Origin: Planctomycetales bacterium
GTDB lineage: Bacteria > 4484-113 > JAFGCY01
Direction: 5' to 3'
Assembly: GCA_022646745.1 (NCBI GenBank)
Contig: CP060262.1
Coordinates: forward strand, 870,001 to 902,000
DNA: 32,000 nucleotides
Part shown: piece by piece, positions 3 to 21,803 of the stretch
How positions within the stretch are numbered: the stretch's first letter is position 1
How the letters are laid out: each line of letters opens with the position of its first letter
The notes under the pieces: generated by a model
Told to the model about the DNA's origin: nothing
Database searches by the model: none
What the model saw: the letters and a program-made list of their open reading frames with translations, nothing else
Position numbers and translations under genes: made by a program

Positions 3-704
3 GTGATGCAGGCTGCACAGCTGGCATCCGCGGGGATCGGCGAGGCCGCCACACAGTCGCTTCAGCATGAACGGCCGGCTGGCTGGCGCTCGAAGGAGTT
101 GCCGGGCCACGGCTACTGGGTGAATGTACGCGTCCGCCCGGTGGATGACCCGACTGGCCTCACACAGGAGGTGCTGGTTTCATTGGATGGCCGCGAGCGG
201 GATGCGCTGTACTGCGACAACATCACCCGCGGCTACCAGCAGGACGGGAACTTCATCTCCGCCTGGCATGTGCGCAACCTCGTCTGGGTGGTGAAGGATG
301 ACGCGCTGGATGAGCTGCTCTCCGGCGAGCCCTGGACGATTGAGCATCCCAAAGGAAGTTCAGACTGGCCGCAGGGCATGACCCATGCGGCCTTTGAGCG
401 CATCATTGGGAAGAGCACGAAGCTGACCGCCGGCGAGCTGCACATCTTCTGCTACAGCGACGCCGGCGACAGGCTGGAGATCGACATTGATGAGGTTGAC
501 AACAGCTACCGGGTGCAGGCGATGCTCGCCCCGGACCTGCCGCTGGCCGGCAGCCTGCTGAAGGAAATCGATGTGGACTCACGGCACAGTGACTACGCCG
601 AACTGACCCTGCAGGCCCGCCCGGGAGCGATCGGCTGGCTGGACCCCTTTGGCAACACGGTGGTGCTGGCCCCCGCAAGGGCCTCGGAACAGGAGGAGAA
701 GTGA
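3..704 (+). CDS. Hypothetical protein, member 1 of a tandem paralogue family (probably 5'-truncated by the window edge)
   Basis: The frame is open from the window edge and there is no signal peptide, so the true start is probably upstream. The TGA at 702-704 overlaps the next gene's start. It shares the ordered motif set (HGYWVNVRVRPVDDPTG ... ELHIFCYS) with the three downstream genes. Confidence 0.6.
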   Translation: MMQAAQLASAGIGEAATQSLQHERPAGWRSKELPGHGYWVNVRVRPVDDPTGLTQEVLVSLDGRERDALYCDNITRGYQQDGNFISAWHVRNLVWVVKDDALDELLSGEPWTIEHPKGSSDWPQGMTHAAFERIIGKSTKLTAGELHIFCYSDAGDRLEIDIDEVDNSYRVQAMLAPDLPLAGSLLKEIDVDSRHSDYAELTLQARPGAIGWLDPFGNTVVLAPARASEQEEK

Positions 705-1519
705 TGAAGCGGATGATGATGGCAATCACCGCCGGGCTGGCCGGCGGGCTGCTGCTGGCGAACCTGGCAACAGCGCAGGACGAGCTGGAGGGCAAGCAAC
801 CGCAGCCCGTCGGCGATGTCGGCTACCAGAGCTACACCGTGGAACTGCCGCGCAGGGCCTGGACGATCGGCATGCAGCTGCATGATGAGAATGGCGAGAT
901 AAGCGAGCAGAGCATCACCGTACTGGACGGCTTCGTGGCGGAGGCCATGAGCAGCAGCATGCGTGGCTACCAGTTGGACGACGAAAGCATGGGACAGGCT
1001 GTGGCGTATAAGTTCCAGATCTGGTTCGTGCCGGACAGCAAGCTTGAGGAATGGCAGGCTGGCGAGAAGGAGCGGGCTTACTTCGATCCATCCGGCCAGG
1101 CCATGATGAGCAGCACTGCAGAGAGCACCGGCCCCGGGGACGGGCAGCCGATGGGGCGGTACTTCAGTGATGACAATGGCCGCCGCGAGCTGCTGCTGGC
1201 CAATGCGCAGGAAATCCGCGTGGACGAGCTGCACATCTTCATCTATGCGCCGGAATACCCGCGGATTGACTTAAGCGTTGACAAGCTGGACTACCGGCAC
1301 TTCATCAACGGAGTTTTCAGCGAGGATGAGGACGTCTTGAAGGCCGAGGACATCCCGTTTGAGCTGGAGAAGATCGAGAGACCGAGCCATATCGCGGATA
1401 TCGTGCTGTTCACGGCGGGCGAGGACCTCGGCTTCATCACGGCGGATGGCGTTCGGATCGGCGATGAGCACTGGGGAAAGGCAGTGGAAGAAGTGGAGGA
1501 AGTGGAAGAAGTCAAGTAG
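704..1519 (+). CDS. Secreted hypothetical protein, tandem family member 2
   Basis: ATG 704 follows AGGAGGAG (691-698) and overlaps the upstream stop (GTGATG). The signal peptide is MKRMMMAITAGLAGGLLLANLATAQDE. Family motifs are RAWTIGMQLHDENGE and ELHIFIYA, and the tail is acidic (EEVEEVEEVK). Confidence 0.75.
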   Translation: MKRMMMAITAGLAGGLLLANLATAQDELEGKQPQPVGDVGYQSYTVELPRRAWTIGMQLHDENGEISEQSITVLDGFVAEAMSSSMRGYQLDDESMGQAVAYKFQIWFVPDSKLEEWQAGEKERAYFDPSGQAMMSSTAESTGPGDGQPMGRYFSDDNGRRELLLANAQEIRVDELHIFIYAPEYPRIDLSVDKLDYRHFINGVFSEDEDVLKAEDIPFELEKIERPSHIADIVLFTAGEDLGFITADGVRIGDEHWGKAVEEVEEVEEVK

Positions 1520-1601
1520 TCAACGAGTCAATGTGTCAACTGCGAGACACCGAGCTGTCGCATATTGACCCATTGACTAGGCGACTAAGTGACTTTATTA
1601 C
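1511..1601 (+). repeat. Composite 8-nt-period word array: (GTCAA N3)x4, ~26-nt spacer, (TGAC N4)x5
   Basis: GTCAA starts at 1511, 1519, 1527 and 1535. TGAC, with degenerate CGAC and TTAC, starts at 1566, 1574, 1582, 1590 and 1598. The stop codon TAG 1517-1519 lies inside the first array. GTCAATGTGTCAA (1527-1539) is complementary to TTGACCCATTGAC (1566-1578) at 12 of 13 positions. Confidence 0.8.
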
Positions 1602-1617
1602 TCCTAAGCCGCCGGAC

Positions 1618-1663
1618 ATCCAGGGCGGGGATTGAGCCGCAGGCGAGATCCACGGGCGGGGAT
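1618..1663 (+). promoter_or_regulatory. Direct repeat ATCCA(C)GGGCGGGGAT x2 upstream of the 1703 gene (candidate operator)
   Basis: ATCCAGGGCGGGGAT is at 1618-1632 and ATCCACGGGCGGGGAT at 1648-1663. The GGGCGGGGAT cores are 31 nt apart (about three helical turns). The repeat lies 40-85 nt upstream of ATG 1703. No function is known. Confidence 0.3.
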
Positions 1664-1702
1664 GTCAAATCGGCCGGCGGCGAAGAACGTATGGAGAATG
1701 AA

Positions 1703-2428
1703 ATGAAACTGATTCTGGCAACACTTGTGGCAATACTGATGGCAACCGCAGTCGCACTGGCGGAAGAGCCGACGGGAGTCAGCGAGAAGACGGAGATTGA
1801 TAAATCCATAGCTTACATGGACATGGACCAGTTCAGCGAAGAGCATTACCCTGTGCCGGGTGAAACCCGGGGCCTGTGGCATTTAAGGATCAGTGTGTAT
1901 GACGGAGAATCCAGCTCCCCCTTCAGTGAGAACATCATGTATCTCAATCCACACATGCCCGCCACTGCGACAGCCGGCAATCCGGGCTGGCAGTTCAGCC
2001 CAATGATCACCGATCCCGTTGACAGGCTGGGCACCGTGATCTGGATGGTCCCGGCTGGGCTGGATGCTGACTTCCAAGAGCACGGTCACCTTGACCTGCC
2101 AGAGCTGATCATTGGGGATGCACCTGCTGCGATGCCAACGCAGAAGCGCGAGCTGTTTGAGCAGCTGCTTGGGCGCAGTCAGCACATCCAGGTTGCCAAC
2201 CTGCATCTCTACCTGTTCAGTCCCTATAGGGGTCGTGCCGAAATCAGCCTCGGTTGGGAGGACAAGGACAGGACACAGGCAACCCGTCCGCCGGAATTCT
2301 ATCGCACAGCAGAACAGCGCGAGGCGGAGGAAGCCGCCGGGCTGAAACACGAGCGGGGAGCGATCCCAGTAGCGGACATCACCGTGTACTTTTCCAACGG
2401 CGGTGAGTGGGCCGGCGGCGACCACTGA
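1703..2428 (+). CDS. Secreted hypothetical protein, tandem family member 3, with a C-terminal GGEWAGG tag
   Basis: ATG 1703 is preceded by GGAGA (1693-1697). The track ORF starts at GTG 1589, but that extension is R/S/G-rich and runs through the intergenic repeat array. The signal peptide is MKLILATLVAILMATAVALAEEP. Motifs are RGLWHLRISVYDGES, WMVPAGLDADFQEHGHLDLP and NLHLYLFS, and the protein ends ...YFSNGGEWAGGDH. Confidence 0.75.
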   Translation: MKLILATLVAILMATAVALAEEPTGVSEKTEIDKSIAYMDMDQFSEEHYPVPGETRGLWHLRISVYDGESSSPFSENIMYLNPHMPATATAGNPGWQFSPMITDPVDRLGTVIWMVPAGLDADFQEHGHLDLPELIIGDAPAAMPTQKRELFEQLLGRSQHIQVANLHLYLFSPYRGRAEISLGWEDKDRTQATRPPEFYRTAEQREAEEAAGLKHERGAIPVADITVYFSNGGEWAGGDH

Positions 2429-2473
2429 CCATCTGACTGATTGACTAATTGACTTTGTGACTCTTTGACTTAC
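2426..2473 (+). repeat. (TGAC N4)x6 exact 8-nt-period array between a stop codon and the next RBS
   Basis: TGAC occurs at 2426, 2434, 2442, 2450, 2458 and 2466. The first TGA is the stop codon of the upstream gene. The array ends just before GGAGAGGG (2475-2482) and ATG 2488. Confidence 0.85.
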
Positions 2474-2487
2474 AGGAGAGGGACATC

Positions 2488-4089
2488 ATGAAACTGACAG
2501 GGATTCTGGCAATTGCCGTGGCAATGCTCTGCGCCGTCCATTCCACCGTACTGGCAGAGGAGCCGGACCGACAGACTGGCAAGTACTTCCACGTGACGCC
2601 TGAGGAGATGGAGGCGCGGCTGGCCGCCCAGTGGTGGCGCAAGGCCGGCGACCGGGTGCTGCCTCCGGCTGTCGAGCGGGAGGGAACCTGGATCCTCACG
2701 CTGGACCTGCAGGACGAAGGCGGCAGGCAGCTGCATCAGTCTGAGATGCTGATCCAGGCCAACAGTTTTGCCAGCAGCAAGTCCCTGCCGGTTTCCGGGC
2801 AGTATTCCGTCGGTGACTTCACCACGCTTGATGACTACCGCTTCCTGCTGTGGGCCTTCCCCTCGCAGTATGACGAGACCTTCCGCGAGTACGGCTACCT
2901 CGACTGGCCGAGCGGGCGGGAGGGCGTGAAGGTGACACGTGCGGATGGCAGTGAGATCGATCTCGGCCGGCCTGATCTGAGCGAGGAGCAGGTGCAGGAA
3001 CTGTTTGCGCAGATGCTCAAGCGGGCTGCGGTGCTGGAGTATGACGGGATGCGGATGTACATCTTCTCCAATGAGGCCAGACAGGCGCATATCAGGCTGG
3101 ACTGGGATGCCGGCATCAATCCGCAGCCCGTCACCAGCCCCGGGGCGAATGAGCAGCGTGTGGCCGAAATGAAGCAGCGTGCCATTCCGGCTGCGGAATT
3201 CACTCTCTACCTGGCTGGAGGCGAATGGGCTGGCGGAGAGACAGTGGCCGGTGGTGAGTGGTCAAGTGGAGGCACGATTGCCGGCGGTCAGTGGTCAGGC
3301 GGCGGCACGATTGCCGGTGGTGAATTCGCCGGTGGAGGCGATGTCGCTGAGACTGACACGGATGGTGGAGAGTGGGCCGGTGGCGGTGATTCTGCCAGCA
3401 GCAATGGGGGCCAGTGGGCCGGCGGCGGCGATCAGTTTGCCAATGCGCATCTGGCGGTGCAGGTGATGCAGGCGGAGAAGCGCGGCGATTTCAAGCCGAG
3501 CACCAGTGTTGCCGACAGGAACTGGTGGAGCAGCCTTGATCCGTCCATCCGGCCCGACCCATACACCAGCCAGGGCCGCTGGCTGCTGGACTTCAACCTG
3601 ATGGACGAGACGGGGCGGGTTGTCAGCGAAAGCAGCCTGCAGCTGATTGAGGGCTTCCCGGCACAGCTGAGCAATGTGCGCGGGCGCGGACAGGACAGCG
3701 ACCCGGACTATGGCAATCTCGAGGACTACTACCTGCTGGCCTGGGTGATCCCGGATGAACTGAATGCGGATTTCCTGCAGAGCGGCTACCTGGACTGGCC
3801 GGTACCCAATAGCGACAGGCTGGTTGTCGGGGAGGACGGTCAGTACATCGAAAGCAGCCCGCCGCAGCTCAAAGATGAACGGAAGCTTGCCCTGTTCAGC
3901 GAGGCGATGTCACACGCACACCACATGCTGATGGAAGGCCTGCACTTCTATGTGTTCTCCCCGCAGTCGGCATCCGCTGACTTCGAGCTGAAGTGGCAGG
4001 ATGGCATGCAGGGTGGCAATACCCGCGATGTTGCCAGCTTCAGTGTGAACTTTGCCAACGGCGGTGAGTGGTCTGGCGGGGAAAGCTAG
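2488..4089 (+). CDS. Secreted hypothetical protein, tandem family member 4 (two domain copies joined by an aromatic-glycine repeat linker)
   Basis: ATG 2488 has a GGAGAGGG RBS. The signal peptide is MKLTGILAIAVAMLCAVHSTVLAEEP. Two copies of the family motif set are present (EGTWILTLDLQDEGG..MRMYIFS and QGRWLLDFNLMDETG..GLHFYVFS). The central GG[EQ][WF]xGG repeats are encoded at 3217-3429, and the protein ends ...FANGGEWSGGES. Confidence 0.85.
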   Translation: MKLTGILAIAVAMLCAVHSTVLAEEPDRQTGKYFHVTPEEMEARLAAQWWRKAGDRVLPPAVEREGTWILTLDLQDEGGRQLHQSEMLIQANSFASSKSLPVSGQYSVGDFTTLDDYRFLLWAFPSQYDETFREYGYLDWPSGREGVKVTRADGSEIDLGRPDLSEEQVQELFAQMLKRAAVLEYDGMRMYIFSNEARQAHIRLDWDAGINPQPVTSPGANEQRVAEMKQRAIPAAEFTLYLAGGEWAGGETVAGGEWSSGGTIAGGQWSGGGTIAGGEFAGGGDVAETDTDGGEWAGGGDSASSNGGQWAGGGDQFANAHLAVQVMQAEKRGDFKPSTSVADRNWWSSLDPSIRPDPYTSQGRWLLDFNLMDETGRVVSESSLQLIEGFPAQLSNVRGRGQDSDPDYGNLEDYYLLAWVIPDELNADFLQSGYLDWPVPNSDRLVVGEDGQYIESSPPQLKDERKLALFSEAMSHAHHMLMEGLHFYVFSPQSASADFELKWQDGMQGGNTRDVASFSVNFANGGEWSGGES

Positions 4090-4091
4090 AC

Positions 4092-4122
4092 GAGCAATGA
4101 GCAATGAAGATTGAGCAATGAG
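4092..4122 (+). repeat. AGCAATGA word array placing TGA every 7 nt directly after a stop codon
   Basis: TGA occurs at 4098, 4105, 4112 and 4119 (exact 7-nt spacing, so all three frames are hit) within GAGCAATGAGCAATGAAGATTGAGCAATGAG. The array begins 3 nt after the TAG stop at 4087-4089. Confidence 0.7.
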
Positions 4123-4707
4123 CCCAGAAGCAGAATGAGAATGAGAAGCAGAAGGAGGATGAGCAGACGGAGCGCGTAGCGCAGCCATGCGAAGGATTGG
4201 CAAAGCTGCGCATGGATCGAAGGCGGAATGGGAGGTGCGCAATCACGCCTGCGGCGTGACGCACAATGGGATGGAGGATGGGGGGCAGCAGAAACAGAAT
4301 GAGAACGAGAAACGGGACCGGCGTCACCCGGTGACGCCAGCACGCTTTCTGCGGCATTCGAGCAAGATCTTACGCGAGTTAGGCAGCGATTTGCATTCTT
4401 CGTGCCTTCGTGACCAGATCATGGTTGTGTGAACCACCAAGCCACCAGGACACCAAGATAGAGCCGATTGTTGCCATTGTTGTTTGACACGATTACTTGG
4501 CAGCATCCACTTCATGGCGCGAAGCGCGCGCCGGTACGGTCATTCTTTTGGCCCCCCCTTGAACTGCTTAGCGCCTTAGCGTCAAACAGAACCATGCCGG
4601 ATTTCCTCGTTGCCAGTCCAGTGCAGCGAGGGATGCCAGTACAGGTAAGGAAGTATCCGGCGGCAGGGCGCAGCCGCAACTGACAACTTCTTCCACTTCT
4701 CCTCTGA

Positions 4708-4734
4708 TCCCCGGTCCCCGGTCCCCGGTCCCCG
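4708..4734 (-). repeat. Heptamer tandem repeat (TCCCCGG)x3.9, giving the G-quadruplex motif GGGGACCGGGGACCGGGGACCGGGG on the minus strand
   Basis: Read directly. There are four G4 tracts with 3-nt loops on the minus strand, 4 nt downstream of the stop (4738-4740) of the minus-strand operon. The 8-bp inverted repeat CTGACAAC (4680-4687) / GTTGTCAG (4734-4741) brackets it. Confidence 0.8.
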
Positions 4735-4737
4735 TTG

Positions 4738-6451: not shown

Positions 6452-8005
6452 TCAGAACTGGCTGCCGAAGGCCAGGCCCCAGGAGTTGTCACTGCCGTCC
6501 CAGGCCTGCCCGATCCAGCCACCGACCTTGAAGCCGCCGTAGATCGGCAGCTTGAACAGCCCGCCGACGCCCCAGGAGTTGAGCGATTCCATGTCATCCA
6601 GGGTCTCGCCGATGAAGCCGTTGTCACTGAACACATAGGCCTCGTAGTTGCGAGATTTGTCCAGCGTGCAGCGGTACTCCGCGCGGGCCCCGACGAACTT
6701 GGTGGCCGCATAGGTGTCGTAGGTGTAGCCGCGCACATTGCCGGCCCCGCCCGCGATCAGCTCGCTGGCCCAGGGCACCTTGCCATCGGCGAGGTCGGCC
6801 TGCAGCTGCACGGACAGGCTGGCGGTGTCGAAGAAATCGCGGATGTCATTCTCCACGCCGATGCCCGGCTCCAGCTCGGTGCGCACCTGCGGCCCGGCGA
6901 TGTTGTGCACCGGGATGTAGCGCCGCAGGTCGAGCCGGAAGCGCTGTGAGTCGAAGTTGCCGAAGGTCTTGGATGCGCGCGCGCTGTAGCTCCAGCCCTT
7001 CTTCGGCAGGAAGGTGGAGTCGCGCTCGCCGCTGCTCCAGGTGATGTAGGTCTCCACGCCGTTGCCCGTCGGGGAGAAGTCCCCGCGCGGGGCCACGCCG
7101 CTGCCGTTCGGGTTGCCGGCGTAGACCCAGGCCTCGTGCCGGAAGATGCCGGCGCCGACGCCCCAGCTGCCCGGCAGCCGGCCGAGCGGGGCCTCGCCAT
7201 TGAAGCCGTAGGCGTAGTCCACCCGCGAGACCCGGGTGCGGATCTCCGCCACCTCGCCGATGGTGTCACGCTTGCGCGTGCGCCATGTATTGGCAACGCT
7301 TGCGCTGTAGCTCTCGGAATTGCGCCCGCTGTTCAGTGTGTTGTCAGTGAAGGAGAAGCTGCCGTAGGGGTCGTCCGCCTCCTTGGTGGCGACGCCGATG
7401 CTGGCGGACAGCTGCTTGTTGCTGTTGTCGAAGAAGAAGTCGTTGTAGCGCACCCCGACCAGCCCGCCGGCCAGCGAGGTGTAGCTCGGCTCCGGCACCC
7501 AGTTCTGCGGGTTCTGCGAGGTGTAGCGGATGTCGATGTTGACACTGCCGTCCTTGTTCTCCCAGACCTGCCAGCTCAGTGAGGAGAAGATCTGGCGGCT
7601 GTAAGCCTGCTTGGCCAGCCTCAGGAAGCGCTCCTCAATGTAGGGCGCGCCCTGCGGCACCTGCAGGATCAGCACGGCGAGCTCCGGGTCCAGCGTGCCG
7701 GTATGCTCCACCACCCGCACGTCCGCGATGAAGTGCATCCGGCCCTCATCGTAGGCATCGGCGTATTCGCGCAGGTCCTCCGCCGTGAGGTAGGCCAGCG
7801 CCTGGGGGTCGATCAGCTGGAAGATGAACTGCGGCAGGACATCGAGCACATCATCGGGGATTTCCTCGTAGGTGATGGCAGCTGCCGGGCGCGCGCAGGC
7901 CAGCATGCAGACAAGCACGAGCAATGCCCTGACGGCTATCTCACCAGCCCTGATTGGCTCCTCCTCCTCGGACAGCGATTCTAGCACGCAGGCCAGACCA
8001 CACAT
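6452..8005 (-). CDS. Omp85/BamA-family outer-membrane beta-barrel protein (surface antigen D15-like)
   Basis: The hydrophobic N-terminus is ...VRALLVLVCMLACARPAAA. An alpha/beta N-terminal (POTRA-like) region is followed by alternating beta-strand sequence. The motif GGAGNVRGY and the aromatic C-terminus ...GLAFGSQF are typical of Omp85 barrels. The exact start is uncertain. Confidence 0.7.
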   Translation of the reverse strand: MCGLACVLESLSEEEEPIRAGEIAVRALLVLVCMLACARPAAAITYEEIPDDVLDVLPQFIFQLIDPQALAYLTAEDLREYADAYDEGRMHFIADVRVVEHTGTLDPELAVLILQVPQGAPYIEERFLRLAKQAYSRQIFSSLSWQVWENKDGSVNIDIRYTSQNPQNWVPEPSYTSLAGGLVGVRYNDFFFDNSNKQLSASIGVATKEADDPYGSFSFTDNTLNSGRNSESYSASVANTWRTRKRDTIGEVAEIRTRVSRVDYAYGFNGEAPLGRLPGSWGVGAGIFRHEAWVYAGNPNGSGVAPRGDFSPTGNGVETYITWSSGERDSTFLPKKGWSYSARASKTFGNFDSQRFRLDLRRYIPVHNIAGPQVRTELEPGIGVENDIRDFFDTASLSVQLQADLADGKVPWASELIAGGAGNVRGYTYDTYAATKFVGARAEYRCTLDKSRNYEAYVFSDNGFIGETLDDMESLNSWGVGGLFKLPIYGGFKVGGWIGQAWDGSDNSWGLAFGSQF

Positions 8006-8168: not shown

Positions 8169-9215
8169 TTGAAGCGCCTCAACACTTTTGCGATTTCCAT
8201 CCTGATCATCATCCTTGCCGCGCTGGCGGCTTCCTGCGGTGGCAGCACCATCGGTGTCGGCCAGCCGGAGGGCATCAACGACGATACACAGGGCAATGGC
8301 GCCATCGAGCAGCAAATCCCCGAGGAGTTCAATGCTGACGAGCTCCCAATGCTGCCCTTCGACGGCGGTGACGAGGAGCAGCAGATCGTGCTGCAGGCCA
8401 AGGGCGCGAGCTGGGTTTCCAGCCCGGACCACCTCACTCCGGTGCTGCACCACAACGCCGGCGTGGACCCCGGTGACCCGAACTGCTACCTGCTGAAGGG
8501 CCGCAAGCCGGTCTTCACCCACGTGCCGCAGGGCCCGGACTTCGCCTACGCGCTCTACCAGATCCCGGTCGGCGCGCTTGAGACTGACCTGCTGAGCATG
8601 AAGGTCGAGGCCGCCCCCGGTGCCGCCGGTGACTTCTACTTCGGCGCGATCGCCAACTACAGCGGCATGGTCTGGGACTTCTTCGGACCGGAAGGCGCCG
8701 CCCCGACGTGGAGCGTTGACATGCAGAGCCTGGGCTATGACTTCACCAGCCCGGCCGGCAACCTCTACGTGCTGCTGCTGGTGCCTGCGGCCCAGAGCCT
8801 GCACGTGACCGACATCGTGCTGGACTACAAGGACCGCGACAAGCCGGTCGACCCGAACCCGGAGATCTGGAACGTCTGGGGCAAGGCCTATGAGGACTAC
8901 GCCACCGGCAGCGCGCATGGCGGGATGGACGTGATCTTCCGCGACATCAACACCAGCGCCTGGTACGTCACGATGGCTGACGCCGCCGGCAACTGGGGCA
9001 TGAACCTGCCGACCGGTGAGTACGACTTCTGGGTGATCGGCAACGAGATGCTGCTCGACGTGAGCGGCCCGGTGGCCCTGATCGACTACCTGCCCGACGG
9101 TGTCGGCACCCGCCTCGACCTCGACGGCAGCGGCCAGATCGTCTACCAGGGCAGCAACGCGGTCTACAACGGCAGCGTGGTGCCGATGCCGCTGATCACC
9201 GCCAACAGCTTCTAG
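8169..9215 (+). CDS. Lipoprotein with the shared N-terminal module and a C-terminal carboxypeptidase-regulatory-like (prealbumin-fold-like) domain
   Basis: The TTG start at 8169 follows AAGGAG (8156-8161). The lipobox is ILAALAASCGG. The shared module runs FAYALYQ...FYFGAIANYSGMVWDFF...GNLYVLLLV. The C-terminal pattern MADAAGNWGMNLPTGEYDFWV is present. Confidence 0.8.
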   Translation: MKRLNTFAISILIIILAALAASCGGSTIGVGQPEGINDDTQGNGAIEQQIPEEFNADELPMLPFDGGDEEQQIVLQAKGASWVSSPDHLTPVLHHNAGVDPGDPNCYLLKGRKPVFTHVPQGPDFAYALYQIPVGALETDLLSMKVEAAPGAAGDFYFGAIANYSGMVWDFFGPEGAAPTWSVDMQSLGYDFTSPAGNLYVLLLVPAAQSLHVTDIVLDYKDRDKPVDPNPEIWNVWGKAYEDYATGSAHGGMDVIFRDINTSAWYVTMADAAGNWGMNLPTGEYDFWVIGNEMLLDVSGPVALIDYLPDGVGTRLDLDGSGQIVYQGSNAVYNGSVVPMPLITANSF

Positions 9216-9437: not shown

Positions 9438-11156
9438 CTACATGCCCGGCGGCGGGGGTCCGTGGACGAACACCACCAGCGCGAGCAGGCTGTTGTCATC
9501 TGTGATAACCGCATCGACAGTCACATGGCTGCCGATCTCGACGTCATCCCATGATCCGGGACCTTCCGGCAGCAGCCAGGCGGTCTGCGGATCGTGCTTG
9601 AAGGTCCAGGCGTCATCGGTGTTGAAGCCATGCACCTCGAAGCTGTTCTCGTTGGCACTGACGAACTGGCCGTCGACGGTGATGTACTCACCGCCACCGC
9701 CGCCACCACCGCCGCCGCCGTTGTCACCGAAGTCCATCACGACATCGGCGATCATCGCGCCATCCGGGGTGATCTGGCCGTCAACATGCACGAAGTCGCC
9801 GATGGCAACATCCTGCCAGCCACCCTCCATGCCGTCAGGCAGCAGGAACAGGGTGTGGCCGTCATGGCCGACCGTGAACGGTGCGCCGGCGGGACCCTGG
9901 GAGACGCTGATGGTCTCGGGGCCGATCGCGGTCACTTCGCCATCCAGCACGAAGGTCTGGCCACCGCCACCTCCGCCGCCGCCACCGCCGCCGTTGCCAC
10001 CGTTCTCGATGACAACGAAGCGGGCAAGCCACTGGCCGTCGGGGGTGATGTCACCTTCGGCATGCACGCAGTCGCCGGGCATGATGTCGCTCCACACAGC
10101 CGGACTGCCGTCAGCGTTGACGAACAGTGTGGCCTCATCGTGGAAGATCATCGGCGGGGCGAACCCGGCGGTGCCGTCGACCGTGAAGAACTCCGGCGTG
10201 ATGTCGATCACGGGGCCGTCGATGGTGAACATCTCACCGCCGCCGCCGTTGCCATCGACCATCTGCACGCTGAGCGCGATGCAGCCGCCGCCGATCACCG
10301 GGTCGTCCGCCATGTAGCCATCGACCGCGGCGAACATGCCGGGTGCGAAGGCATCCGGGCCGACCTCGTTGCCAGCCATGTCGAACCACAGGGTATCCGC
10401 ATTGTGGATGAAGTAGTGGCCGGCCACGCTGATGCTGAGGTCGTCAATGTGGTCAATCGGGCCGATCGCGAAGCAGGGGTCACCCGGGCCGCCGCCCGGT
10501 CCGCCGCCGTTGCGCTCACCGGTGGTGATCGTGGCCTGGTCGACGTAGAGGCTCTTGCCGCCATCAACCAGCACGACCCAGTACAGGTTGCCAAGCTGGC
10601 TGATGAACTGGCTCTCGCCCTCACTGAACTCGACGTTCACCTCCGGCAGCTGGGTCTCGATCACCCAGTGCCAGCGGTTGTCATCGAAGCTGCCGAGCGC
10701 CACGTAGTAGGTGGTGTCGAGGTCCTGCGGGCGGGTCTCCAGCGCGAAGCTGAGCACCTTCTGCCCCTGCAGCCCGTCCGCCTTGTACAGCGACCAGGCT
10801 GCTTCCTCAGCACTGCTCTCGAGCAGCAGGCTCGTACCATCGACGGTGCCGCCGGAAGCGACGAGGAAGTCGCTGCCGTTGTAGGTCTTCACCGCTGATG
10901 TACTGCGACTGCCGCTGTCAGCGACTGTCCCGCTGTCCTGCGGCACGCTGGGAAGCGGAGTCCCCAGTGGCAGCAGTTCGCCCCCGGAAGTTCCGGTGGA
11001 CTGGCCCGTGGAATTGATGCTATCGAGGGAAGACCCCGCATCCGCCGACAGTCCCGCTCCGCCTCCGCAAGACGCCAGCAGCATTGCCAGCACAAGCGGG
11101 AAGACGAAGATGGCCAGCCGGTGAAGCGACCCCTTCTCCCCTTGGTGATTCTTCAT
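9438..11156 (-). CDS. Lipoprotein: shared N-terminal module plus four DUF5666-like modules separated by poly-Gly linkers
   Basis: ATG 11156 has a strong GGAGGTG RBS. The lipobox is LAMLLASCGGG. The shared module runs AAWSLYKADGL...YYVALGSFDDNRWHW...GNLYWVVLV. Four repeats of the pattern x-[FI]-x-[VI]-DG-x-[VI]...G-D/S-x-V-x-V-[DE] are separated by Gly runs of 4, 10 and 11 residues. Confidence 0.85.
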   Translation of the reverse strand: MKNHQGEKGSLHRLAIFVFPLVLAMLLASCGGGAGLSADAGSSLDSINSTGQSTGTSGGELLPLGTPLPSVPQDSGTVADSGSRSTSAVKTYNGSDFLVASGGTVDGTSLLLESSAEEAAWSLYKADGLQGQKVLSFALETRPQDLDTTYYVALGSFDDNRWHWVIETQLPEVNVEFSEGESQFISQLGNLYWVVLVDGGKSLYVDQATITTGERNGGGPGGGPGDPCFAIGPIDHIDDLSISVAGHYFIHNADTLWFDMAGNEVGPDAFAPGMFAAVDGYMADDPVIGGGCIALSVQMVDGNGGGGEMFTIDGPVIDITPEFFTVDGTAGFAPPMIFHDEATLFVNADGSPAVWSDIMPGDCVHAEGDITPDGQWLARFVVIENGGNGGGGGGGGGGGQTFVLDGEVTAIGPETISVSQGPAGAPFTVGHDGHTLFLLPDGMEGGWQDVAIGDFVHVDGQITPDGAMIADVVMDFGDNGGGGGGGGGGEYITVDGQFVSANENSFEVHGFNTDDAWTFKHDPQTAWLLPEGPGSWDDVEIGSHVTVDAVITDDNSLLALVVFVHGPPPPGM

Positions 11157-11417: not shown

Positions 11418-12950
11418 ATGAACCTGACCATAGACAAGCAGGGCAGTGAACCCGTCTACGAGCAGATCCGCCGCCAGATCGAGGAACTGGTCGGCGAGGG
11501 CCTGCTCACGGCGGGCACGCGCATTCCTTCCGTACGCCAGCTGGCGGCCTCGCTTGGCCTATCCAAGAATACCGTCAGTGTGGCTTATGAGGAACTGGCG
11601 GCCCGGCATATCATCGAAACCAAACCCGGCAGCGGCACCTTCATCTGTGCGCGGCCGGAAGTGGCCACCGGAGTCAACCTCGGCCGGCGCAACGAGATGA
11701 ATGGCGAGCTGTCGGACTTCCCGCCGATGCGCTGGGAGCCCTACTTCTTCCGCAGCGAGTTCTTCGGCATGCTGCCCGGCAAGCGCGTGAGTGAGATGAT
11801 CCGCTTCACGCACAACTACCCGGACCCGGAGCTGTTCCCCTTCGAGCGCATCAAGCAGGTCGCCACCAACATGCTGTGGAACCCGCAGAGCTTCTTCTTC
11901 GACATCTCGCACCCGCAGGGCTACCAGCCGCTGGTGGAGCACCTCGAGAAGGAAATGGCGCTGGCCGGGATCCCGATGGCTGAGGGCCAGAACGACATCA
12001 TCATCACCGGCGGCTTCCAGCGCGCGCTCTCGCTGATCCTGGACTTCATCGTGCGCCCAGGCCAGAAGGTGGCGATCGAGAGCCCGAGCTACTCCAACCT
12101 GCTCAACCTGCTGATCGCCAAGCACATCGACTACCTGCCTGTGCCGGTTGACAGCGAGGGGATGGACACCGAGTTCCTGGCAACGGCGATGGCACGCGGG
12201 GAGGTCTGCGCGGTGATCTGCACGCCGGACTTCCACAACCCGACCGGGATCTGCATGAGCCGCGAGCGCCGCGAGCACCTGCTGCGCCTGGCGATGCAGC
12301 ACCGGGTGCCGATCCTTGAGGATGACCAGGGTCGCAAGCTGCGCTTCGAAGGCGAGGACAATCCACCGCTGAAGTCGATGGACTACGGCGGATACGTGAT
12401 CCATGCCAGCAGCTATGGAATGTGCTTCCTGCCAGGCCTGCCGATCGCCTGGGTGACGACGCCGGCCGCGATATCGGCACCATTGCTTGACGCCAAGCTG
12501 GCTGCTGACCGCGGCGACAGCTACTTCCTGCATGTGCTGATGCACAACTTCATCGTCAAGGGACATTTTGACAGGCACATCCGCAAGTCCCAGCGTGAGT
12601 ACAAGCGCCGCCGGGATGCCATGGTGGAGACATTGTCAAAGTACCTTCCAAGCGAGTGCCGCTACCGTGTACCGCAGGGCGGCTTCACGATCTGGCTTGA
12701 GCTGCCCCAGCCGATGAATTCGATGAAAGTACTGGAACACAGCCGGCGGGCCGGGGTTGACTTCGTGCCGGCCCCGATAGTGATGCCTGACCGTAAGGAC
12801 TGCAATTGCCTGCGCCTGAGTTATTCGCGCAATGGTGTCGAGGATATTCGCTCGGGAATCCGCACGCTATGTGATGTGATCCGTAGCTGCGTCGACAATC
12901 CGGACCTGATGGAGGGTCCGGAAATGAAATATGAGGATCTGCTGAAATGA
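11418..12950 (+). CDS. MocR-subfamily GntR transcriptional regulator (wHTH fused to a fold-type-I aminotransferase-like domain) with degenerate PLP-site residues
   Basis: The N-terminal GntR wHTH is YEQIRRQIEELV...IPSVRQLAASLGLSKNTVSVAYEELAARHIIETKPGSGTFI. The C-terminal aminotransferase-like motifs are VAIESPSYSN, TPDFHNPTG, ILEDDQ and SSYGMCFLPGLPIAW. The last motif aligns without gaps to the usual FSKxLxPGLRxGY. Confidence 0.9.
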   Translation: MNLTIDKQGSEPVYEQIRRQIEELVGEGLLTAGTRIPSVRQLAASLGLSKNTVSVAYEELAARHIIETKPGSGTFICARPEVATGVNLGRRNEMNGELSDFPPMRWEPYFFRSEFFGMLPGKRVSEMIRFTHNYPDPELFPFERIKQVATNMLWNPQSFFFDISHPQGYQPLVEHLEKEMALAGIPMAEGQNDIIITGGFQRALSLILDFIVRPGQKVAIESPSYSNLLNLLIAKHIDYLPVPVDSEGMDTEFLATAMARGEVCAVICTPDFHNPTGICMSRERREHLLRLAMQHRVPILEDDQGRKLRFEGEDNPPLKSMDYGGYVIHASSYGMCFLPGLPIAWVTTPAAISAPLLDAKLAADRGDSYFLHVLMHNFIVKGHFDRHIRKSQREYKRRRDAMVETLSKYLPSECRYRVPQGGFTIWLELPQPMNSMKVLEHSRRAGVDFVPAPIVMPDRKDCNCLRLSYSRNGVEDIRSGIRTLCDVIRSCVDNPDLMEGPEMKYEDLLK

Positions 12951-15079
12951 GACACACAGCCATCTACACGATTCTGGCAACGGCATTTCTGCTCAGTGCC
13001 TGTGGGGGCGGACAGGGCAGCGGTGAGTCCACTGGCAGCTATGCACTGGAGGCCCTGCATGGCACCAGCAGCGCCAGCCTGCAGCTCGGGATGGAGCGGG
13101 GCAGTGCCGTGGTCAGCGTGGACTCACCTGGCAGCGATGGCAGTTTCTTCAGCCTCAGCCTGCCGGAGAACATGGTTCCCGCCTCGCTGGACTGGCTGGA
13201 TGGCAACGGCAACCCGCTGGACAGCGGGATGCTGACATTCACCCATTTTGAGGATGGCCGGCTCAGTGCAGCTGTGATGCCGCTGGCCGATGCAGCTTCC
13301 GGGCCAGTCAGCCTGCGAGTTCAACCTGCACTCGACGCAGCGGCCCGCCTGGCCAGTGCCACTGATGAGGAAATCCGCGAGGAGCCAGTGCCCTTCACCT
13401 TCATGGACTTTGACCCGGCTGGCGGCTCAGTGCTGCTCAGCTGGCCGGCCTGGCTGCCCGGTGACTACGACCTGAGCGGCATTGTCGGCATCAATGACAT
13501 CACCCCGCTGGGCAAGCACTTCGGCTCCGCCAGTGGCGGCAATGGCTGGACCCAGGACGACCCGCTGCACTGGATCGATGGCAACCGCGACGGGGAGATC
13601 AACTCCGTTGACTTGAGCGTGATCGGCCAGCACTTCAACGATGAACTGATCGGTTTCCGCGTCTACCATGACGGCGAACTGTACCAGGGCATGGACGAAA
13701 GCATGCTGAACGTACTGAGCGGTGACCCGCAGGGCCCTGGCCTGCCCCGCCGCCACTTCCTGCACCTGCCGGGCATTGAGTCACCCGACCTGCTTGAGCT
13801 GCGCAGCGTCTACCACCATCACGGGCTCGGCTCAGGTGGCAACAACCCTGACCTCGAGGTGCATATCTCGATTGACGGCGTGGAGCTGGCTGACAACGAA
13901 TTCGGCAACAAGACCGGTACCCGCGTGATCAAGCCGATTGAGGATGTCAACGGCGCACGTGACATCATCAGCACGCCGGAGAGCGAAAGCAGCTCGCTGG
14001 CCCGCTTCCGCAGCGTGCCGCGCGGGCAGGAGTACCTGCTGGACATCGTCTACGAACCGCTGGTGAGTCCCTTCGGCAGCGAGCTGCCTGACAACCCGGT
14101 GGTGCAGGGTGGCGACGATGCCGGCAAGGTGGTCACCTCCGTGTCCTTCCGCCTGCCGCAGCAGTACAGCCGCAGCGTGATGAACATCAACATCCACTAC
14201 CTGCCGCAGCCCGATGGCAGTTACTTCGCCGAGCTGAATGCCAGCATTGACCACGGCAGTGGCGTGAGCGAGTACTCCGCGCTGCTGGACTACAACGGCG
14301 GCGTGCTGCGCCGTGACAGTGACAACGACGGCAGCTTCACGGGTGAGGTCGAATTCGAGGACAGCGACCGCGACTGCGTCAGCAACCAGCTGGTGGAGGA
14401 GATCTTCTTCCCCGGCGTCGAGCCGCCGCAGCAGGGCTACATCCATGGCGTGTTCGACGGCCTCGTGGAGTCGATCGACTTCATTGCCTCCGAGATCACG
14501 ATGGTGCCGGGCAGCATGCAGTTCTGGAGCGACGGCGCAATCCGCGAGGACCGTACCGTGCACTTCAGCGAGAATGCCGAGTTCATCGGATTCGCGGACA
14601 TCCGTTCGCTGGCTCCGGGAGATCCGGTGCACATTGAGATGTACCGCCTGGAGGACAATGGAGACACGGGCAATATCCCCGCCGGCGTATCCTGGGCGGA
14701 GCTGATCCATGCACTGGACCAGAACTTCAGTGAGTACTGGATCCAGGCCGAGCTGCAGGAGAACAGCGAGTTCGTCGCGATCAGCGTCGGCCGGGCTGGT
14801 GGACCGCTGGACGGAGCCTACCCGCAGTACCTGATCGCGGTGCGCGATGAGTTCAGCGGGGATTACGAGGAGCTGCCCTACGGCGAAGTCGTAACCGGAT
14901 TCATCTACCTGCCGCTCTGGCCTGACCACCTCTATACGATCAGCCTGCTTGGGGTGGCACTTGACGGCAAGCGCGTGCTGCTGGCGGATACCCAGGTCTA
15001 CATTGACCCGGAGCTGTTCTGGGACGGCTTCGGTGACCCGCCGGGCGGCAATCCGCCGATCGGCGGACCGGGAGTCTGA
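12947..15079 (+). CDS. Lipoprotein with dockerin-like repeats and a DUF5666-like segment, hypothetical
   Basis: ATG 12947 overlaps the regulator stop (ATGA). The lipobox is TAFLLSACGGG. The dockerin-like pair is GDYDLSGIVGINDITPLGKHFG ... DGNRDGEINSVDLSVIGQHFN. A later segment (IHGVFDGLVESIDFIASEITMVPG...LAPGDPVHIEMYRLEDNGD) resembles the DUF5666-like modules elsewhere in the window. Confidence 0.85.
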   Translation: MRHTAIYTILATAFLLSACGGGQGSGESTGSYALEALHGTSSASLQLGMERGSAVVSVDSPGSDGSFFSLSLPENMVPASLDWLDGNGNPLDSGMLTFTHFEDGRLSAAVMPLADAASGPVSLRVQPALDAAARLASATDEEIREEPVPFTFMDFDPAGGSVLLSWPAWLPGDYDLSGIVGINDITPLGKHFGSASGGNGWTQDDPLHWIDGNRDGEINSVDLSVIGQHFNDELIGFRVYHDGELYQGMDESMLNVLSGDPQGPGLPRRHFLHLPGIESPDLLELRSVYHHHGLGSGGNNPDLEVHISIDGVELADNEFGNKTGTRVIKPIEDVNGARDIISTPESESSSLARFRSVPRGQEYLLDIVYEPLVSPFGSELPDNPVVQGGDDAGKVVTSVSFRLPQQYSRSVMNINIHYLPQPDGSYFAELNASIDHGSGVSEYSALLDYNGGVLRRDSDNDGSFTGEVEFEDSDRDCVSNQLVEEIFFPGVEPPQQGYIHGVFDGLVESIDFIASEITMVPGSMQFWSDGAIREDRTVHFSENAEFIGFADIRSLAPGDPVHIEMYRLEDNGDTGNIPAGVSWAELIHALDQNFSEYWIQAELQENSEFVAISVGRAGGPLDGAYPQYLIAVRDEFSGDYEELPYGEVVTGFIYLPLWPDHLYTISLLGVALDGKRVLLADTQVYIDPELFWDGFGDPPGGNPPIGGPGV

Positions 15080-15130: not shown

Positions 15131-16555
15131 ATGGCAAGTCTGAACAGCAAGCGCGGCAGTGCCGAGCGTTTCGAGGAGCTGACCCCGCAGCAGATCGTGG
15201 CCAGGCTCAGCGAGTACATCGTCGGGCAGGATGAAGCCAAGAAGGCCGTTGCGGTGGCGATCCGCAACCGCCTGCGCCGCCTGCAGGTCTCCGAGGAACT
15301 GCGCGACGAGATCATCCCGAAGAACCTGATCCTGATGGGGCCGACCGGCGTCGGCAAGACGGAGATCGCGCGGCGGATGGCGATCCTGCTGAAGGCGCCC
15401 TTCGTCAAGGTCGAGGCCACCAAGTTCACCGAGGTCGGCTACGTCGGCCGCGACGTGGACAGCATCATCCGTGAGCTGACCGAGAACAGCGTGCGCATGC
15501 TGCGCCAGGAACGCATCGACGAAATCAGCGACACAATCGCCGGCAAGGTGGTGGAACGGCTGGTGGACTACCTGCAGCCCCTGCCCGGCCGCCCGGCACC
15601 GGCTTCCGGTGACGACCCGGAGGAGGCCGCGCGCCGCCGGCAGAAGCATGAGGATGCGCTCGAACAGGTCAAGCGCCTGCGTGAGCGGCTGCGCCAGCGG
15701 ATCCGCTCCGGCGAGATGGACGACGAGAAGGTCACCATTGAGGCCAAGGAAGGTGGCAACAACATGATGCAGGTGTTCTCCGCCCAGGGGATGGAGGAGA
15801 TGGGGATGGACCTGCAGAACCTGTTCAGCAACATGACGGACAAGGGCAAGAAGAAGAAGCGCACCACCGTCGGCGAGGCGCGCCGCATCCTGATGCAGGA
15901 GGAAGCCGACCGTCTGATTGACAACGATGCGATTGTGCGCGAGGCGATCGAGCGCGTCGAGCTGGCCGGCATCGTGTTCATCGACGAGATTGACAAGATC
16001 GCGCACCGCGAGGGCGGCAGCTCCAGCGGGCCGGACGTCTCCCGCGAGGGCGTGCAGCGCGACATCCTGCCGCTGGTGGAGGGCACCACCGTGATCACCA
16101 AGTACGGCCCGGTGCGCACCCAGCACATCCTGTTCATCGCCGCCGGTGCATTCCATGTCAGCCGCGTGAGCGACCTGATCCCGGAGTTCCAGGGCCGCTT
16201 CCCGCTGCGCGTCGAGCTGGAGAGCCTGACGGAGGAGGACTTCGGCCGCATCCTGCGCGAGCCGAAGAACAGCCTGATCCGCCAGTACAGCCAGCTGCTG
16301 GCAACGGACGGCGTGGAGCTGCAGTTCACCGGCGGCGCGATCACGCGCATGGCGGCGATTGCCAGCAAGGCGAATGCGGAGAGCCAGAACATCGGCGCGC
16401 GCCGGCTGCACACGGTGATGGAGAAGCTGCTGGAGGACATCGCGTTTGAGGCGCCCTATGAAGAGCCGAGGAAGATCCGGATTGACAAGGCCTTCATCGA
16501 GGACAAGCTCGGCAGCCTGCTGAAGGAAAAGGACGTCGCGCAATACATATTGTGA
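15131..16555 (+). CDS. hslU: ATP-dependent protease ATPase subunit HslU
   Basis: The full-length match to the HslU pattern includes LTPQQIVARLSEYIVGQDEAKKAVAVAIRNR, Walker A GPTGVGKTEIARR, KVEATKFTEVGYVGRDVDSIIRELTE, Walker B IVFIDEIDKI, DVSREGVQRDILPLVEGT, FIAAGAF and LIPEFQGRFP. Confidence 0.95.
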   Translation: MASLNSKRGSAERFEELTPQQIVARLSEYIVGQDEAKKAVAVAIRNRLRRLQVSEELRDEIIPKNLILMGPTGVGKTEIARRMAILLKAPFVKVEATKFTEVGYVGRDVDSIIRELTENSVRMLRQERIDEISDTIAGKVVERLVDYLQPLPGRPAPASGDDPEEAARRRQKHEDALEQVKRLRERLRQRIRSGEMDDEKVTIEAKEGGNNMMQVFSAQGMEEMGMDLQNLFSNMTDKGKKKKRTTVGEARRILMQEEADRLIDNDAIVREAIERVELAGIVFIDEIDKIAHREGGSSSGPDVSREGVQRDILPLVEGTTVITKYGPVRTQHILFIAAGAFHVSRVSDLIPEFQGRFPLRVELESLTEEDFGRILREPKNSLIRQYSQLLATDGVELQFTGGAITRMAAIASKANAESQNIGARRLHTVMEKLLEDIAFEAPYEEPRKIRIDKAFIEDKLGSLLKEKDVAQYIL

Positions 16556-16658: not shown

Positions 16659-16729
16659 GGAGGCAGTGTGCAAGTTTATCCGCGAGGAAAAGACCTCAGG
16701 CAAGATACTATGTCTGTTAGACTTTGCCG

Positions 16730-17419
16730 ATGAACAAGCCAAGTGCAAAGTCCGGCATTGTCCCGAAAGCGTTGCTTTTGCTTTGCTGTTTGCTTGCAGG
16801 GTACTTGGCAGTAAAGAAGCCAGTTGCCGACGCTAAGGAACTAAACCGTCAGCGCGACAGGATTCAACTGATCAGGGGCAGTTCTTCCGAAGCGTATTCC
16901 AACACTGACACGGGAAACTGGCAACGGACCTTGCCACTGCAACAGCGGATTCCAGACTCACTGGAAAAGGACCAATTGCAAGACCTGCTGGCAGAACTGT
17001 TCAGGGAGTATGCCCAATCCGTTCCACCGGAAAGCGACCTATACGTTACCTGCAGCAGCACAACGGACATGTTGTATCTGGCAGATCCAGTGAGCATCCA
17101 GGATCCTGACCCAGGCTTACTTGTCAACCTTGGTAATGATGGAAGAAGAGTCAATACCGGAAAGGACTGGCTGGAAAAGCGTGACGAGAACCGAGCTCCG
17201 GCATTCCACCCGCATGTCCTGCATTTCGTCGGATTGGCAGAATCAGAAAAAGGGGAGTACGATTTGCTGATTGAGCTGTCCAGAGGTGAGATCATGGGTT
17301 CATTCCTGAATTCAGCATCACTGGATCAGACAGGGGAATGGGTCATCAGTTGGGATACTCCGGTAGAGGACATGCTGGCAATCATCGATAAAGCTTACGC
17401 TCATTCAATGCAGGAATAG
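16730..17419 (+). CDS. Membrane-anchored hypothetical protein in a low-GC islet
   Basis: ATG 16730 is used here; the track start at 16724 is TTG. The N-terminal anchor is KALLLLCCLLAGYLAV. No recognisable motifs were found. Two sampled 60-nt stretches (16801-16920) are 50-53% GC, against 65% in an hslU sample. Confidence 0.55.
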   Translation: MNKPSAKSGIVPKALLLLCCLLAGYLAVKKPVADAKELNRQRDRIQLIRGSSSEAYSNTDTGNWQRTLPLQQRIPDSLEKDQLQDLLAELFREYAQSVPPESDLYVTCSSTTDMLYLADPVSIQDPDPGLLVNLGNDGRRVNTGKDWLEKRDENRAPAFHPHVLHFVGLAESEKGEYDLLIELSRGEIMGSFLNSASLDQTGEWVISWDTPVEDMLAIIDKAYAHSMQE

Positions 17420-19460: not shown

Positions 19461-19742
19461 CCAGGCTGAATCCCACTTGCCTAATAGGATTGTTGCCCTG
19501 CTGCGACTTTGTCTCATTTAGGATCGAGCGTTCCATTTTGAACTGATTCACCGCGCACTGCGGTACTGTCCCTGCTGGCTGCGAGCAGGCCCAGACTGGG
19601 TCCAACTCATTGCCGGGCCGTGTGGGGGCTGGATTCGCTATTGCTTCCGGTCTCAGTGTCCCCGTCGTTTTACCGGGAAAATGGCCCTTTTGGATGCCTA
19701 TTGTCCGGGATATCCTGTGAGCATCAAACCGGAGGTGCAGCA

Positions 19743-21664: not shown

Positions 21665-21803
21665 CTCAGCGGGCAGGTAACTGATTCATTCCTTTTAAGC
21701 TAAACTTCACCATTCGATTTCGTATAAGTTGCTGGAACGAGAGGCACCCAGGCCATGAGGGAGCAAGTGCGCATCGCAGCCCCAGCGGTTGGTGAGGTGC
21801 CTG

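Follow-up and report, generated by a model that had tools for sequence, protein, structure and literature searches.

The locus studied here raises a simple question: what do the products of a tandem gene array do when they are exported and share a domain that none of the libraries searched can match? The array lies at the left end of a 32,000-nt stretch of contig CP060262.1, from a genome labelled Planctomycetales bacterium (the window; coordinates are positions in it unless a related locus is named), and occupies 3–4089 of the + strand. Four co-directional open reading frames (ORFs), A, B, C and D, fill the first 4100 nt and carry five copies of one ~200-aa domain, one each in A, B and C and two (D1 and D2) in D. 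They encode an exported, acidic, orphan paralogue set that is under purifying selection and includes a recombining hypervariable pair. We suggest, tentatively, that the products work together as one envelope assembly, in which A, B and D2 would form a conserved frame and C and D1 a variable, exchangeable part.

Homology and predicted structure of the five copies

A preliminary description, made from the letters and the ORF translations, had proposed four genes with five copies of an unrecognised secreted domain, marked by three ordered motifs. The four ORFs were found as described. In pairwise BLAST comparisons on a small database, C was closest to D1 (1e-18) and D2 (3e-16), while A–B (2e-6 to 8e-8) and B–D2 (6e-6 to 2e-7) gave weaker matches. 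We then compared orthologue-enriched profiles by hhalign and obtained an E-value of 6e-18 for A against B (probability 99.0), 1.5e-19 for B against C/D (99.2) and 6.6e-9 for A against C/D (95.8). By these profile comparisons, which settle the question, the five units are homologous, and the similarity first seen by eye is significant when properly aligned. The mutual identity of the copies is 16–29%, and among five B-type orthologues 58 columns are invariant. All three motifs (N-proximal, central and distal) sit in aligned columns; the central one is clear only in C, D1 and D2.

AlphaFold2 models were built for mature C (17-sequence alignment; pLDDT 76, pTM 0.70) and mature B (26-sequence alignment; pLDDT 71.6, pTM 0.67); both are of medium confidence, the alignments being shallow. 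The two models have a common predicted alpha/beta order: a beta-meander of four to five strands, a helix, a variable low-confidence loop, a second helix, a hairpin with a long strand, and a final strand. In the C model, pLDDT is <50 in the tail and over the first 30 residues. The B model has a central low-confidence loop rich in Gly, Ser and Thr, and its equivalent in the C/D units is a hairpin of ~13 residues. Conserved catalytic-type residues were not found in the family.

Searches against known families and distribution of the domain

Scans of Pfam-A, NCBIfam, PHROGs and PADLOC with the four proteins and with 17 family members singly gave nothing significant. The best sub-threshold matches, far under the gathering scores, were ALN (E 0.054), NtrZ (E 0.13) and PepSY_2 (E 0.041, in one of the 17 members). 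Profiles from the 5- and 26-sequence alignments did not match any PDB sequence (best E 0.18–0.66). Foldseek searches with the C model reached E 0.041 in PDB and 0.021 in BFVD at TM ≤0.26, those with the B model E 0.017 in PDB at TM ≤0.17, and neither model had a match at E ≤0.001. As no match of either kind was obtained in these libraries, we take the domain to be new at the family level, that is, unmatched in Pfam, NCBIfam, PHROGs, PADLOC, PDB and BFVD. The domain thus stays unrecognised, as it was first described. A new fold is possible and is put forward as a candidate claim, judged against PDB and BFVD.

An exhaustive hmmsearch of 1.84 billion cluster representatives retrieved 28 proteins at E ≤1e-3. 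About half of them (~14) are true members of 131–447 aa: 12 complete single-domain proteins (237–280 aa), a 131-aa fragment (P0025) and a 447-aa two-domain D-type protein (P0002). The others are giant PKD, CarboxypepD_reg or Big proteins that align only at profile positions ~26–80. We rejected these as family members; they share just a generic last hairpin, GxWxLxLxLxDxxG, of ~35–50 residues.

All true members come from one small uncultured clade (UBP7, or bins labelled 4484-113). Among 185,579 GTDB species genomes, four loci were picked up by a pattern scan, each in a metagenome-assembled genome (MAG) labelled UBP7, 'bacterium' or 'Planctomycetales bacterium'. The somewhat more distant bin 4484_113 JAFGCY01 also has the locus, with a dihydroorotase 83% identical to that of the window. 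Identical array proteins were recovered from independent assemblies and samples; the protein of gene C is identical to NCBI H7A35_03560. The HKST MAGs originate from saline activated sludge (PMC8495973), and in the library of papers searched none gave any cell biology for the candidate phylum UBP7.

Export signals and gene layout

Signal peptides were judged by direct reading and Kyte–Doolittle hydropathy. The N-termini of B, C and D each have a K/R n-region, a hydrophobic core and an A-x-A site followed by acidic residues, features of cleavable Sec-type signals, and this N-terminal segment is the sole hydrophobic peak of each protein. The Sec signals proposed earlier for the three complete genes were thereby confirmed. 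Gene A is cut by the window edge. Its orthologue in the related locus L003 has 266 aa, is 90.6% identical, begins MIRLRKYAAAVAAMILLLPPGAAKA and carries a signal peptide, from which ~33 N-terminal residues of A, including the signal, should lie upstream of the edge.

The array proteins are acidic (pI 4.3–4.7), and mature B, C and D lack Cys. Direct reading, hydropathy and the Pfam/NCBIfam scans revealed neither a canonical lipobox ([LVI][ASTVI][GAS]C) nor a C-terminal sorting signal (PEP-CTERM, GlyGly-CTERM, T9SS CTD or LPXTG), be it a motif with a transmembrane helix or a CTD of ~80 aa. Lipoprotein, sorting-signal and pilin readings of the array proteins were dropped on direct reading and hydropathy. 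A class III prepilin signal (G|FTLxE) was not found either; the signal peptides of the array close with A-x-A, after which come acidic residues.

The genes are tightly packed. The overlap noted earlier at 701–706 proved to be that of the TGA of A with the ATG of B, a GTG at 701 being an alternative start of B, and the 59-nt gap before gene D was also confirmed. Such an overlap is present in all loci seen; it is 1 nt in the window, L003 and L007, and 4 nt in L008, L013 and L015. From this arrangement we infer a translational-coupling junction at which A and B would be co-translated. The mechanical ORF start of gene C is 1589; the most likely real start is the ATG at 1703, because the orthologue is called at the corresponding MKLIL start and an SD sequence, GGAG, lies upstream. 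An ATG at 1691 is an alternative (245 aa).

The C-termini differ between the types. A has a C-terminal hairpin motif, LGWLDPFGNTVVL, instead of a GGxWxGG tail. B has a conserved C-terminal part, DIPFEL...PSHIADIV...DLGFITADG, followed by an acidic EEVEEVEEVK tail. C has a variable body and a conserved tail, PPEFYRTAE...AIPVADITVYFSNGGEWAGGDH, with GGEWAGG at 2399–2419. A conserved WWSSLDPSIRPDP motif stands just ahead of the D2 core.

An old set of paralogues in a conserved locus

In a neighbour-joining tree, the domain copies fell into five orthologous clades. Clades A, B, C and D2 have members both in the sublineage of the window and in the more distant L015 and L018, while D1, sister to D2, is confined to the window's sublineage. 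In other genomes, D2-type proteins are encoded apart, as one domain behind a signal peptide of its own, and D1-type proteins also occur as stand-alone genes.

The window and the loci L003/L011 and L007/L012 have A and B followed by C and a fused D (D1, repeats, D2). In L013, C and a stand-alone D1 follow A and B, then comes an IS200-like transposase, and D2 is missing. In L014, only D1 with its repeats follows B, gene C and domain D2 being absent. L015 carries one single-domain gene of each of the types A, B, C and D2, and L018 has an A/B chimera followed by a D2-type and then a C-type gene. The clade order is kept in most genomes examined (L003/L011, L007/L012, L013 and L015).

The preliminary description had spoken of a local amplification. 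This was not borne out: because the copies are only 16–29% identical, form orthologous clades and keep their order in most genomes, the duplications are old, and the array is a maintained paralogue set rather than a recent amplification. D1, its fusion to D2, and the losses or rearrangements in L013, L014 and L018 are, on the same comparisons, lineage-specific.

Two of the rearranged loci offer details of their own. The chimera of L018 (2177–3019) is A-type over its N-terminal ~50 residues and B-type over the remainder. Unequal crossing-over between adjacent paralogues would be expected to give such a product. The D gene of L014 (11039–11920), compared with that of L007 (12624–14192), stops within the GGxWxGG repeats (...GGEWAGGEG*), and its D1 is near-identical to that of L007. 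The loss of D2 (and C) in L014 is consistent with deletion by recombination between the GGxWxGG-coding repeats.

All complete loci open with a gene for a 66–75-aa two-helix membrane protein ahead of gene A; it was found upstream in L003, L007, L008, L013, L014, L015 and L018. Its product has the motif …GE[KQ]xGNGCLGC[IF]LGxxLGPFGLxITALxGR and no Pfam, NCBIfam or PADLOC match. In some loci, not in all, a second small ORF (52–55 aa) follows it. Judged from this gene order, positions 3–4089 are the distal part of an operon-like block that the small membrane-protein gene opens in complete loci.

Selection and exchange of a variable cassette

The preliminary description had also suggested a diversifying function and proposed dN/dS as a check. 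Gene-wide dN/dS between orthologues of the array genes was 0.12–0.52, which indicates purifying selection; the neighbouring dihydroorotase gave 0.11 and the neighbouring outer-membrane protein 0.03–0.15. Positive selection was rejected, as no gene and no 30-codon window had dN/dS >1, the test being uninformative for C and D1, where dS is saturated. The array is nevertheless, on protein comparisons, the fastest-evolving part of its neighbourhood: between the window and L015, array proteins are 33–47% identical and their neighbours 58–86% (dihydroorotase 83%).

The suggestion held only for C and D1, whose variability fits diversification of a part of the array. Between the window and L007, protein identity is 82% in A, 78% in B and 90% in D2 (95% in dihydroorotase), and it falls to 58% in D1 and 41% in C; dS is saturated in C and D1 and 0.25–0.6 in the flanks. 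The comparison with L003 gave the opposite picture. DNA identity is ~0.9 in A, B and D2, and rises to 0.97–1.00 across 1650–3150, which covers C and D1 (dS of C 0.024), before falling to 0.73–0.83 in the linker of gene D. Because C and D1 are diverged against L007 yet near-identical against L003, each time in contrast to the flanks, the pair behaves as a hypervariable cassette, whose old divergent alleles seem to pass from one lineage to another through homologous recombination. C-type proteins vary in their N-terminal half and are most conserved in the C-terminal third and the tail. The ORFs of the array are intact in every genome, and even between lineages with saturated synonymous sites the signal peptides, SD sequences and motifs are conserved.

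The Gly-Trp motif and the linker of gene D

A motif GG[EQ][WFY][AS][GS]G stands directly after the last beta-strand of C (nt 2399) and D2 (nt 4060). Six more, of the form GG[EQ][WF][AS][GS]G, follow D1 with starts at 3217, 3250, 3283, 3316, 3364 and 3406, mostly with an 11-residue period, and give gene D a total of seven GG[EQ][WF]xGG copies. A tandem repeat of period 33 was detected at 3247–3321. The linker has 32% Gly, is acidic and lacks K and R; it had no match among PDB sequences. Its repeat number varies among gene D orthologues. A and B have a G[WF] hairpin motif (LGWLDPFGN, LGFITADG) at the equivalent place. Among all ORFs of the window and of the related loci read, GG[EQ]WxGG is confined to C/D-type proteins, and we rejected the idea that it is a genome-wide sorting signal of exported proteins.

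Two kinds of known repeat invite comparison. The WG/GW 'Ago-hook' repeats bind Argonaute (PMC2910046), and the prion protein has the octarepeat PHGGGWGQ (PMC11126799). Like these, the linker presents a single Trp within a flexible, Gly-rich, low-complexity repeat in several copies; the likeness is one of analogy only. The array repeats are bacterial, exported, acidic, of 11-residue period and missing in a sister lineage. By this analogy, the seven copies in D suggest multivalent docking of an aromatic side chain. RTX repeats (GGxGxDxUx) are likewise acidic, rich in Gly and arranged in tandem close to the C-terminus of proteins that are exported. In the array repeat, GGEWAGGETVA, however, the fourth position is Trp and not Gly and there is no conserved Asp at the sixth, and the array proteins have N-terminal Sec signals, which type I secretion substrates lack. 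We rejected the RTX reading on the 11-residue period and the consensus; a HemolysinCabind Pfam match was not obtained.

Proposed role of the array and its alternatives

As conserved catalytic-type residues are lacking, we take the role of the array to be structural or binding rather than enzymatic. The reading that we prefer, tentatively and in the knowledge that it may well be wrong, is that the four products, once exported, are joined as subunits in a single cell-envelope assembly, periplasmic or attached to the surface. It is based on the fixed gene order, the A/B coupling with its strong SD, the D1–D2 fusion, and the conserved ends around a variable body. A and B, co-translated through their overlapping stop and start codons, and D2 would be the conserved part. 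C and D1 would be the variable part, probably exposed or in contact with a partner, and homologous recombination would swap them as a cassette from lineage to lineage. The subunits might touch one another through conserved segments predicted to be unstructured, namely an N-terminal WW...D.SI.P motif and the stretch that follows the last beta-strand. In A and B this stretch is the G[WF] hairpin; in C and D it has one to seven GG[EQ]WxGG motifs, which are flexible. The natural D1–D2 fusion would mean that two units can work while physically tethered. A more detailed version, namely a new envelope or surface assembly specific to UBP7 and built on one new fold, with A, B and D2 as an invariant scaffold, C and D1 as a module swapped in the manner of antigens or receptors, and docking by GG[EQ]WxGG, is in our view unlikely as a whole.

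Known assemblies provide partial parallels. LukS/LukF leukocidins and the major and minor pilins of chaperone–usher systems are also encoded by adjacent diverged paralogues with their own signal peptides, a fixed order and apparent co-expression, and the idea of a conserved frame with a variable component fits them too. There is, however, no sequence or significant structural similarity to either, the array fold has helices, and the assembly here is our interpretation; usher and periplasmic chaperone domains were not found in the neighbouring genes of the loci read. Flagellins and type IV pilins resemble C-type proteins in their variable body with a conserved C-terminal third and tail, and in the mosaicism that C and D1 show between genomes. 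Homology is absent, though, and it is two of the five units that vary, not one domain within a single polymerising subunit. The proteins also have the generic traits of S-layer-type proteins (exported, acidic, Cys-poor, fast-evolving and lineage-specific), which are not diagnostic; Pfam gave no SLH or anchoring domain.

Several observations weigh against a joint assembly. The set of units differs between loci: A, B and D1 are all that L014 has, D2 is missing from L013, and L018 has the chimera with a D2-type and then a C-type gene. Therefore no single C/D subunit can be indispensable, which would agree with redundancy and with a complex alike. In the L015/L018 lineage, C and D2 have no GGxWxGG tails, and because of this the motif is a derived, accessory feature that cannot be essential to the core function of the family. 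Conserved synteny, that of the small membrane protein included, is weak evidence of a functional link, since all carriers are fairly close relatives (dihydroorotase at least 83% identical). The missing structural match could partly reflect model error. Lastly, assembly, localisation and expression are read here from genes and predicted models.

The first alternative, which we consider rather doubtful, is that each protein works on its own as a secreted or surface module that binds a different target, as an adhesin or a ligand binder would, with the array serving to broaden or vary specificity; this is in line with the preliminary description. Sec signals, acidity, rapid evolution relative to the neighbours, the hypervariable and recombining C and D1, and a C/D clade copy number that varies between genomes all agree with this. 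So does the N-proximal GxWxLxLxLxDxxG hairpin, which resembles the last hairpin of PKD, CarboxypepD_reg, Big and other Ig-like beta-sandwich domains common in adhesins; however, the hairpin alone matches and not the full ~80–90-aa sandwich (seven to eight strands, WDFGDG-type core), there is no Pfam Ig-like match, and the rest of the array domain is predicted to be alpha/beta. The conservation of A, B and D2 under purifying selection, and the dN/dS windows that never exceed 1, speak against such modules. Four types in a fixed order with A/B translational coupling would be unexpected for independent binders, and no anchor (lipobox, sorting signal, autotransporter or TPS domain) was found by Pfam/NCBIfam scans, hydropathy and reading.

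It is improbable, in our estimate, that the array encodes periplasmic protective or accessory proteins: inhibitors, immunity proteins against hydrolases or toxins, or holdase chaperones for the exported PKD and DUF5666 proteins in which the window is rich. Tandem small exported paralogues are typical of immunity and inhibitor arrays, and rapid evolution with cassette exchange would fit an arms race. Yet no toxin, effector or secretion-system gene adjoins the array in any locus, PADLOC gave no match, and each genome has one locus with stable orthologous types, while immunity arrays are usually fluid. The helix–helix–beta3 second half of the models recalls BLIP, BamE and PepSY-type modules, but the PepSY_2 match in one of 17 members is non-significant and Foldseek did not return BLIP, BamE or PepSY structures.

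A multi-component beta-barrel pore-forming toxin set, like the tandem S/F leukocidin genes, is very improbable. Chains of alpha-hemolysin, leukocidin, NetB or VCC take up about half of the 50 best Foldseek rows that the B model gave in PDB, and the size, Sec signals, tandem paralogy and Gly/Ser/Thr-rich central loop of B are toxin-like. These rows are, however, redundant PDB copies and non-significant (E ≥0.017, probability ≤0.2, TM ≤0.16, rmsd ~20 Å), and the C model does not retrieve them. There is no Leukocidin Pfam match, both models have three helices against the all-beta hemolysin fold, and the central loop is not amphipathic and shrinks in C/D to ~13 residues of hairpin. That the genes are decaying, functionless duplicates in a poorly annotated MAG, or artefacts of ORF calling, is hardly credible: they have no known function or homologue and some units are lost in some genomes, but the ORFs are intact everywhere, dN/dS is well under 1, signal peptides, SD sequences and motifs persist despite saturated synonymous sites, and identical proteins recur in independent assemblies. 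The remaining probability belongs to functions that we do not name.

Spacers and surrounding genes

The features of the array and its surroundings are collected in Table 1. Right after the stop codons of B and C lie octamer arrays of three AGTCAANN units followed by three to six reverse-complement NTTGACTN units. In the B–C spacer, these AGTCAA/TTGACT arrays pair as a long imperfect hairpin, and the whole spacer has a minimum free energy of −77 kcal/mol (z −5.36). In the C–D gap of the window, five to six TGAC(T)-containing octamers of the TTGACT side only stand just ahead of the SD. The octamer design is conserved with varying unit number in L003 (9030–9108) and L007 (11569–11640 and 12355–12436). 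Covariation was not found in the spacer hairpin RNA, and an Rfam scan of the window gave no match. The octamers could act in the mRNA, as a hairpin for its processing or stability, or in the DNA, as an array to which protein binds.

The B–C spacer also contains a GC-rich palindromic element, GCCGCCGGACATCCAGGGCGGGGAT...GGGCGGGGATGTCAAATCGGCCGGCGGC, which has relatives in the C–D gap of L007 (~12440–12600) and the B–D1 gap of L014 (~10860–11010). Since it is found in different array spacers in different genomes, the element has the look of a mobile or recombinogenic one. The minimum-energy fold pairs the SD of gene C with UUACUCC, which lies immediately upstream of the palindrome.

Downstream of gene D, ~650 nt (4090–4737) contain no convincing ORF, which is unusually long between convergent genes. 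This region has purine-rich repeats (GAGCAAT four times, CAGAAGCAGAATGAGAA three times) and two copies of TCCCCGGTCCCCG. The matching position holds a DDE_Tnp_1 transposase in L007 and, in L013, an IS200-like Y1 transposase flanked by repeated units.

The gene at 6452–8005 (− strand) adjoins dihydroorotase in all related loci. Its 517-aa product ends ...GLAFGSQF, has a VRGY motif by eye, no Pfam match and a weak match to the BamA barrel (TIGR03303, E 0.0045). The protein is probably a highly divergent outer-membrane member of the Omp85 family whose N-terminal region is short. A second orphan array lies between hslV and the A–D array in L003 (1337–4397, upstream of the left edge of the window) and L013 (2466–7344). 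Its two to four lipoprotein-like genes (363, 366 and 182 aa) are mutually 30–57% identical and have no Pfam match. Further orphan ORFs of 231–710 aa, with no Pfam/NCBIfam match, are found at 8169–9215, 12947–15079, 16724–17419, 17778–19460 and 29092–29817. Orphan genes are thus frequent across the whole window.

Table 1. Positions of the array features, of the small membrane-protein gene in related loci and of annotated genes in the window
Feature	Position	Strand	Remarks
Gene A	3–704	+	5' end cut by window edge; 233 aa seen; one A-type copy
A–B junction	691–706	+	SD-like AGGAGGAG at 691–698; TGA of A (702–704) overlaps ATG of B (704–706)
Gene B	704–1519	+	271 aa; signal peptide 704–775, mature protein 776–1516; one B-type copy
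B–C spacer	1517–1702	+	Octamer hairpin 1517–1587; GC-rich palindrome 1608–1681; SD GGAG before ATG 1703
Gene C	1703–2428	+	241 aa; signal peptide 1703–1762, mature protein 1763–2425; one C-type copy
C–D spacer	2429–2487	+	59 nt; SD AGGAG before gene D
Gene D	2488–4089	+	533 aa; two domain copies (D1, D2); stop 4087–4089
Gene D, part 1	2488–3216	+	Signal peptide 2488–2556; D1 2557–3216
Gene D, linker	3217–3426	+	Inter-domain; Gly-rich GG[EQ][WF][AS][GS]G repeats
Gene D, part 2	3427–4089	+	D2, core from ~3475; ends ...SVNFANGGEWSGGES (motif 4060–4080)
Small membrane-protein gene	L003 6960–7181; L007 9563–9763; L013 8847–9074; L015 7096–7299		Outside the window
DUF5666 protein	9438–11156	−	
MocR-type GntR-aminotransferase regulator	11418–12950		
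HslU	15131–16555		
DUF5666 protein	19620–21581		
Large PKD-repeat protein	21789–24860		
Large PKD-repeat protein	24988–27798		
LbtU-like porin	27815–29098	−	
Beta-lactamase-family protein	29839–30948		

Implications

Orphan exported families are common in candidate phyla, and our claim of novelty is accordingly modest: 'new' means unmatched in the libraries searched. As a small system, the array lends itself to testing structure prediction and multimer modelling on orphan families. With its orphan domain, its conserved and hypervariable members and its Trp-in-glycine repeat, it leads to concrete hypotheses on how the envelope may be built and varied in these uncultured cells.

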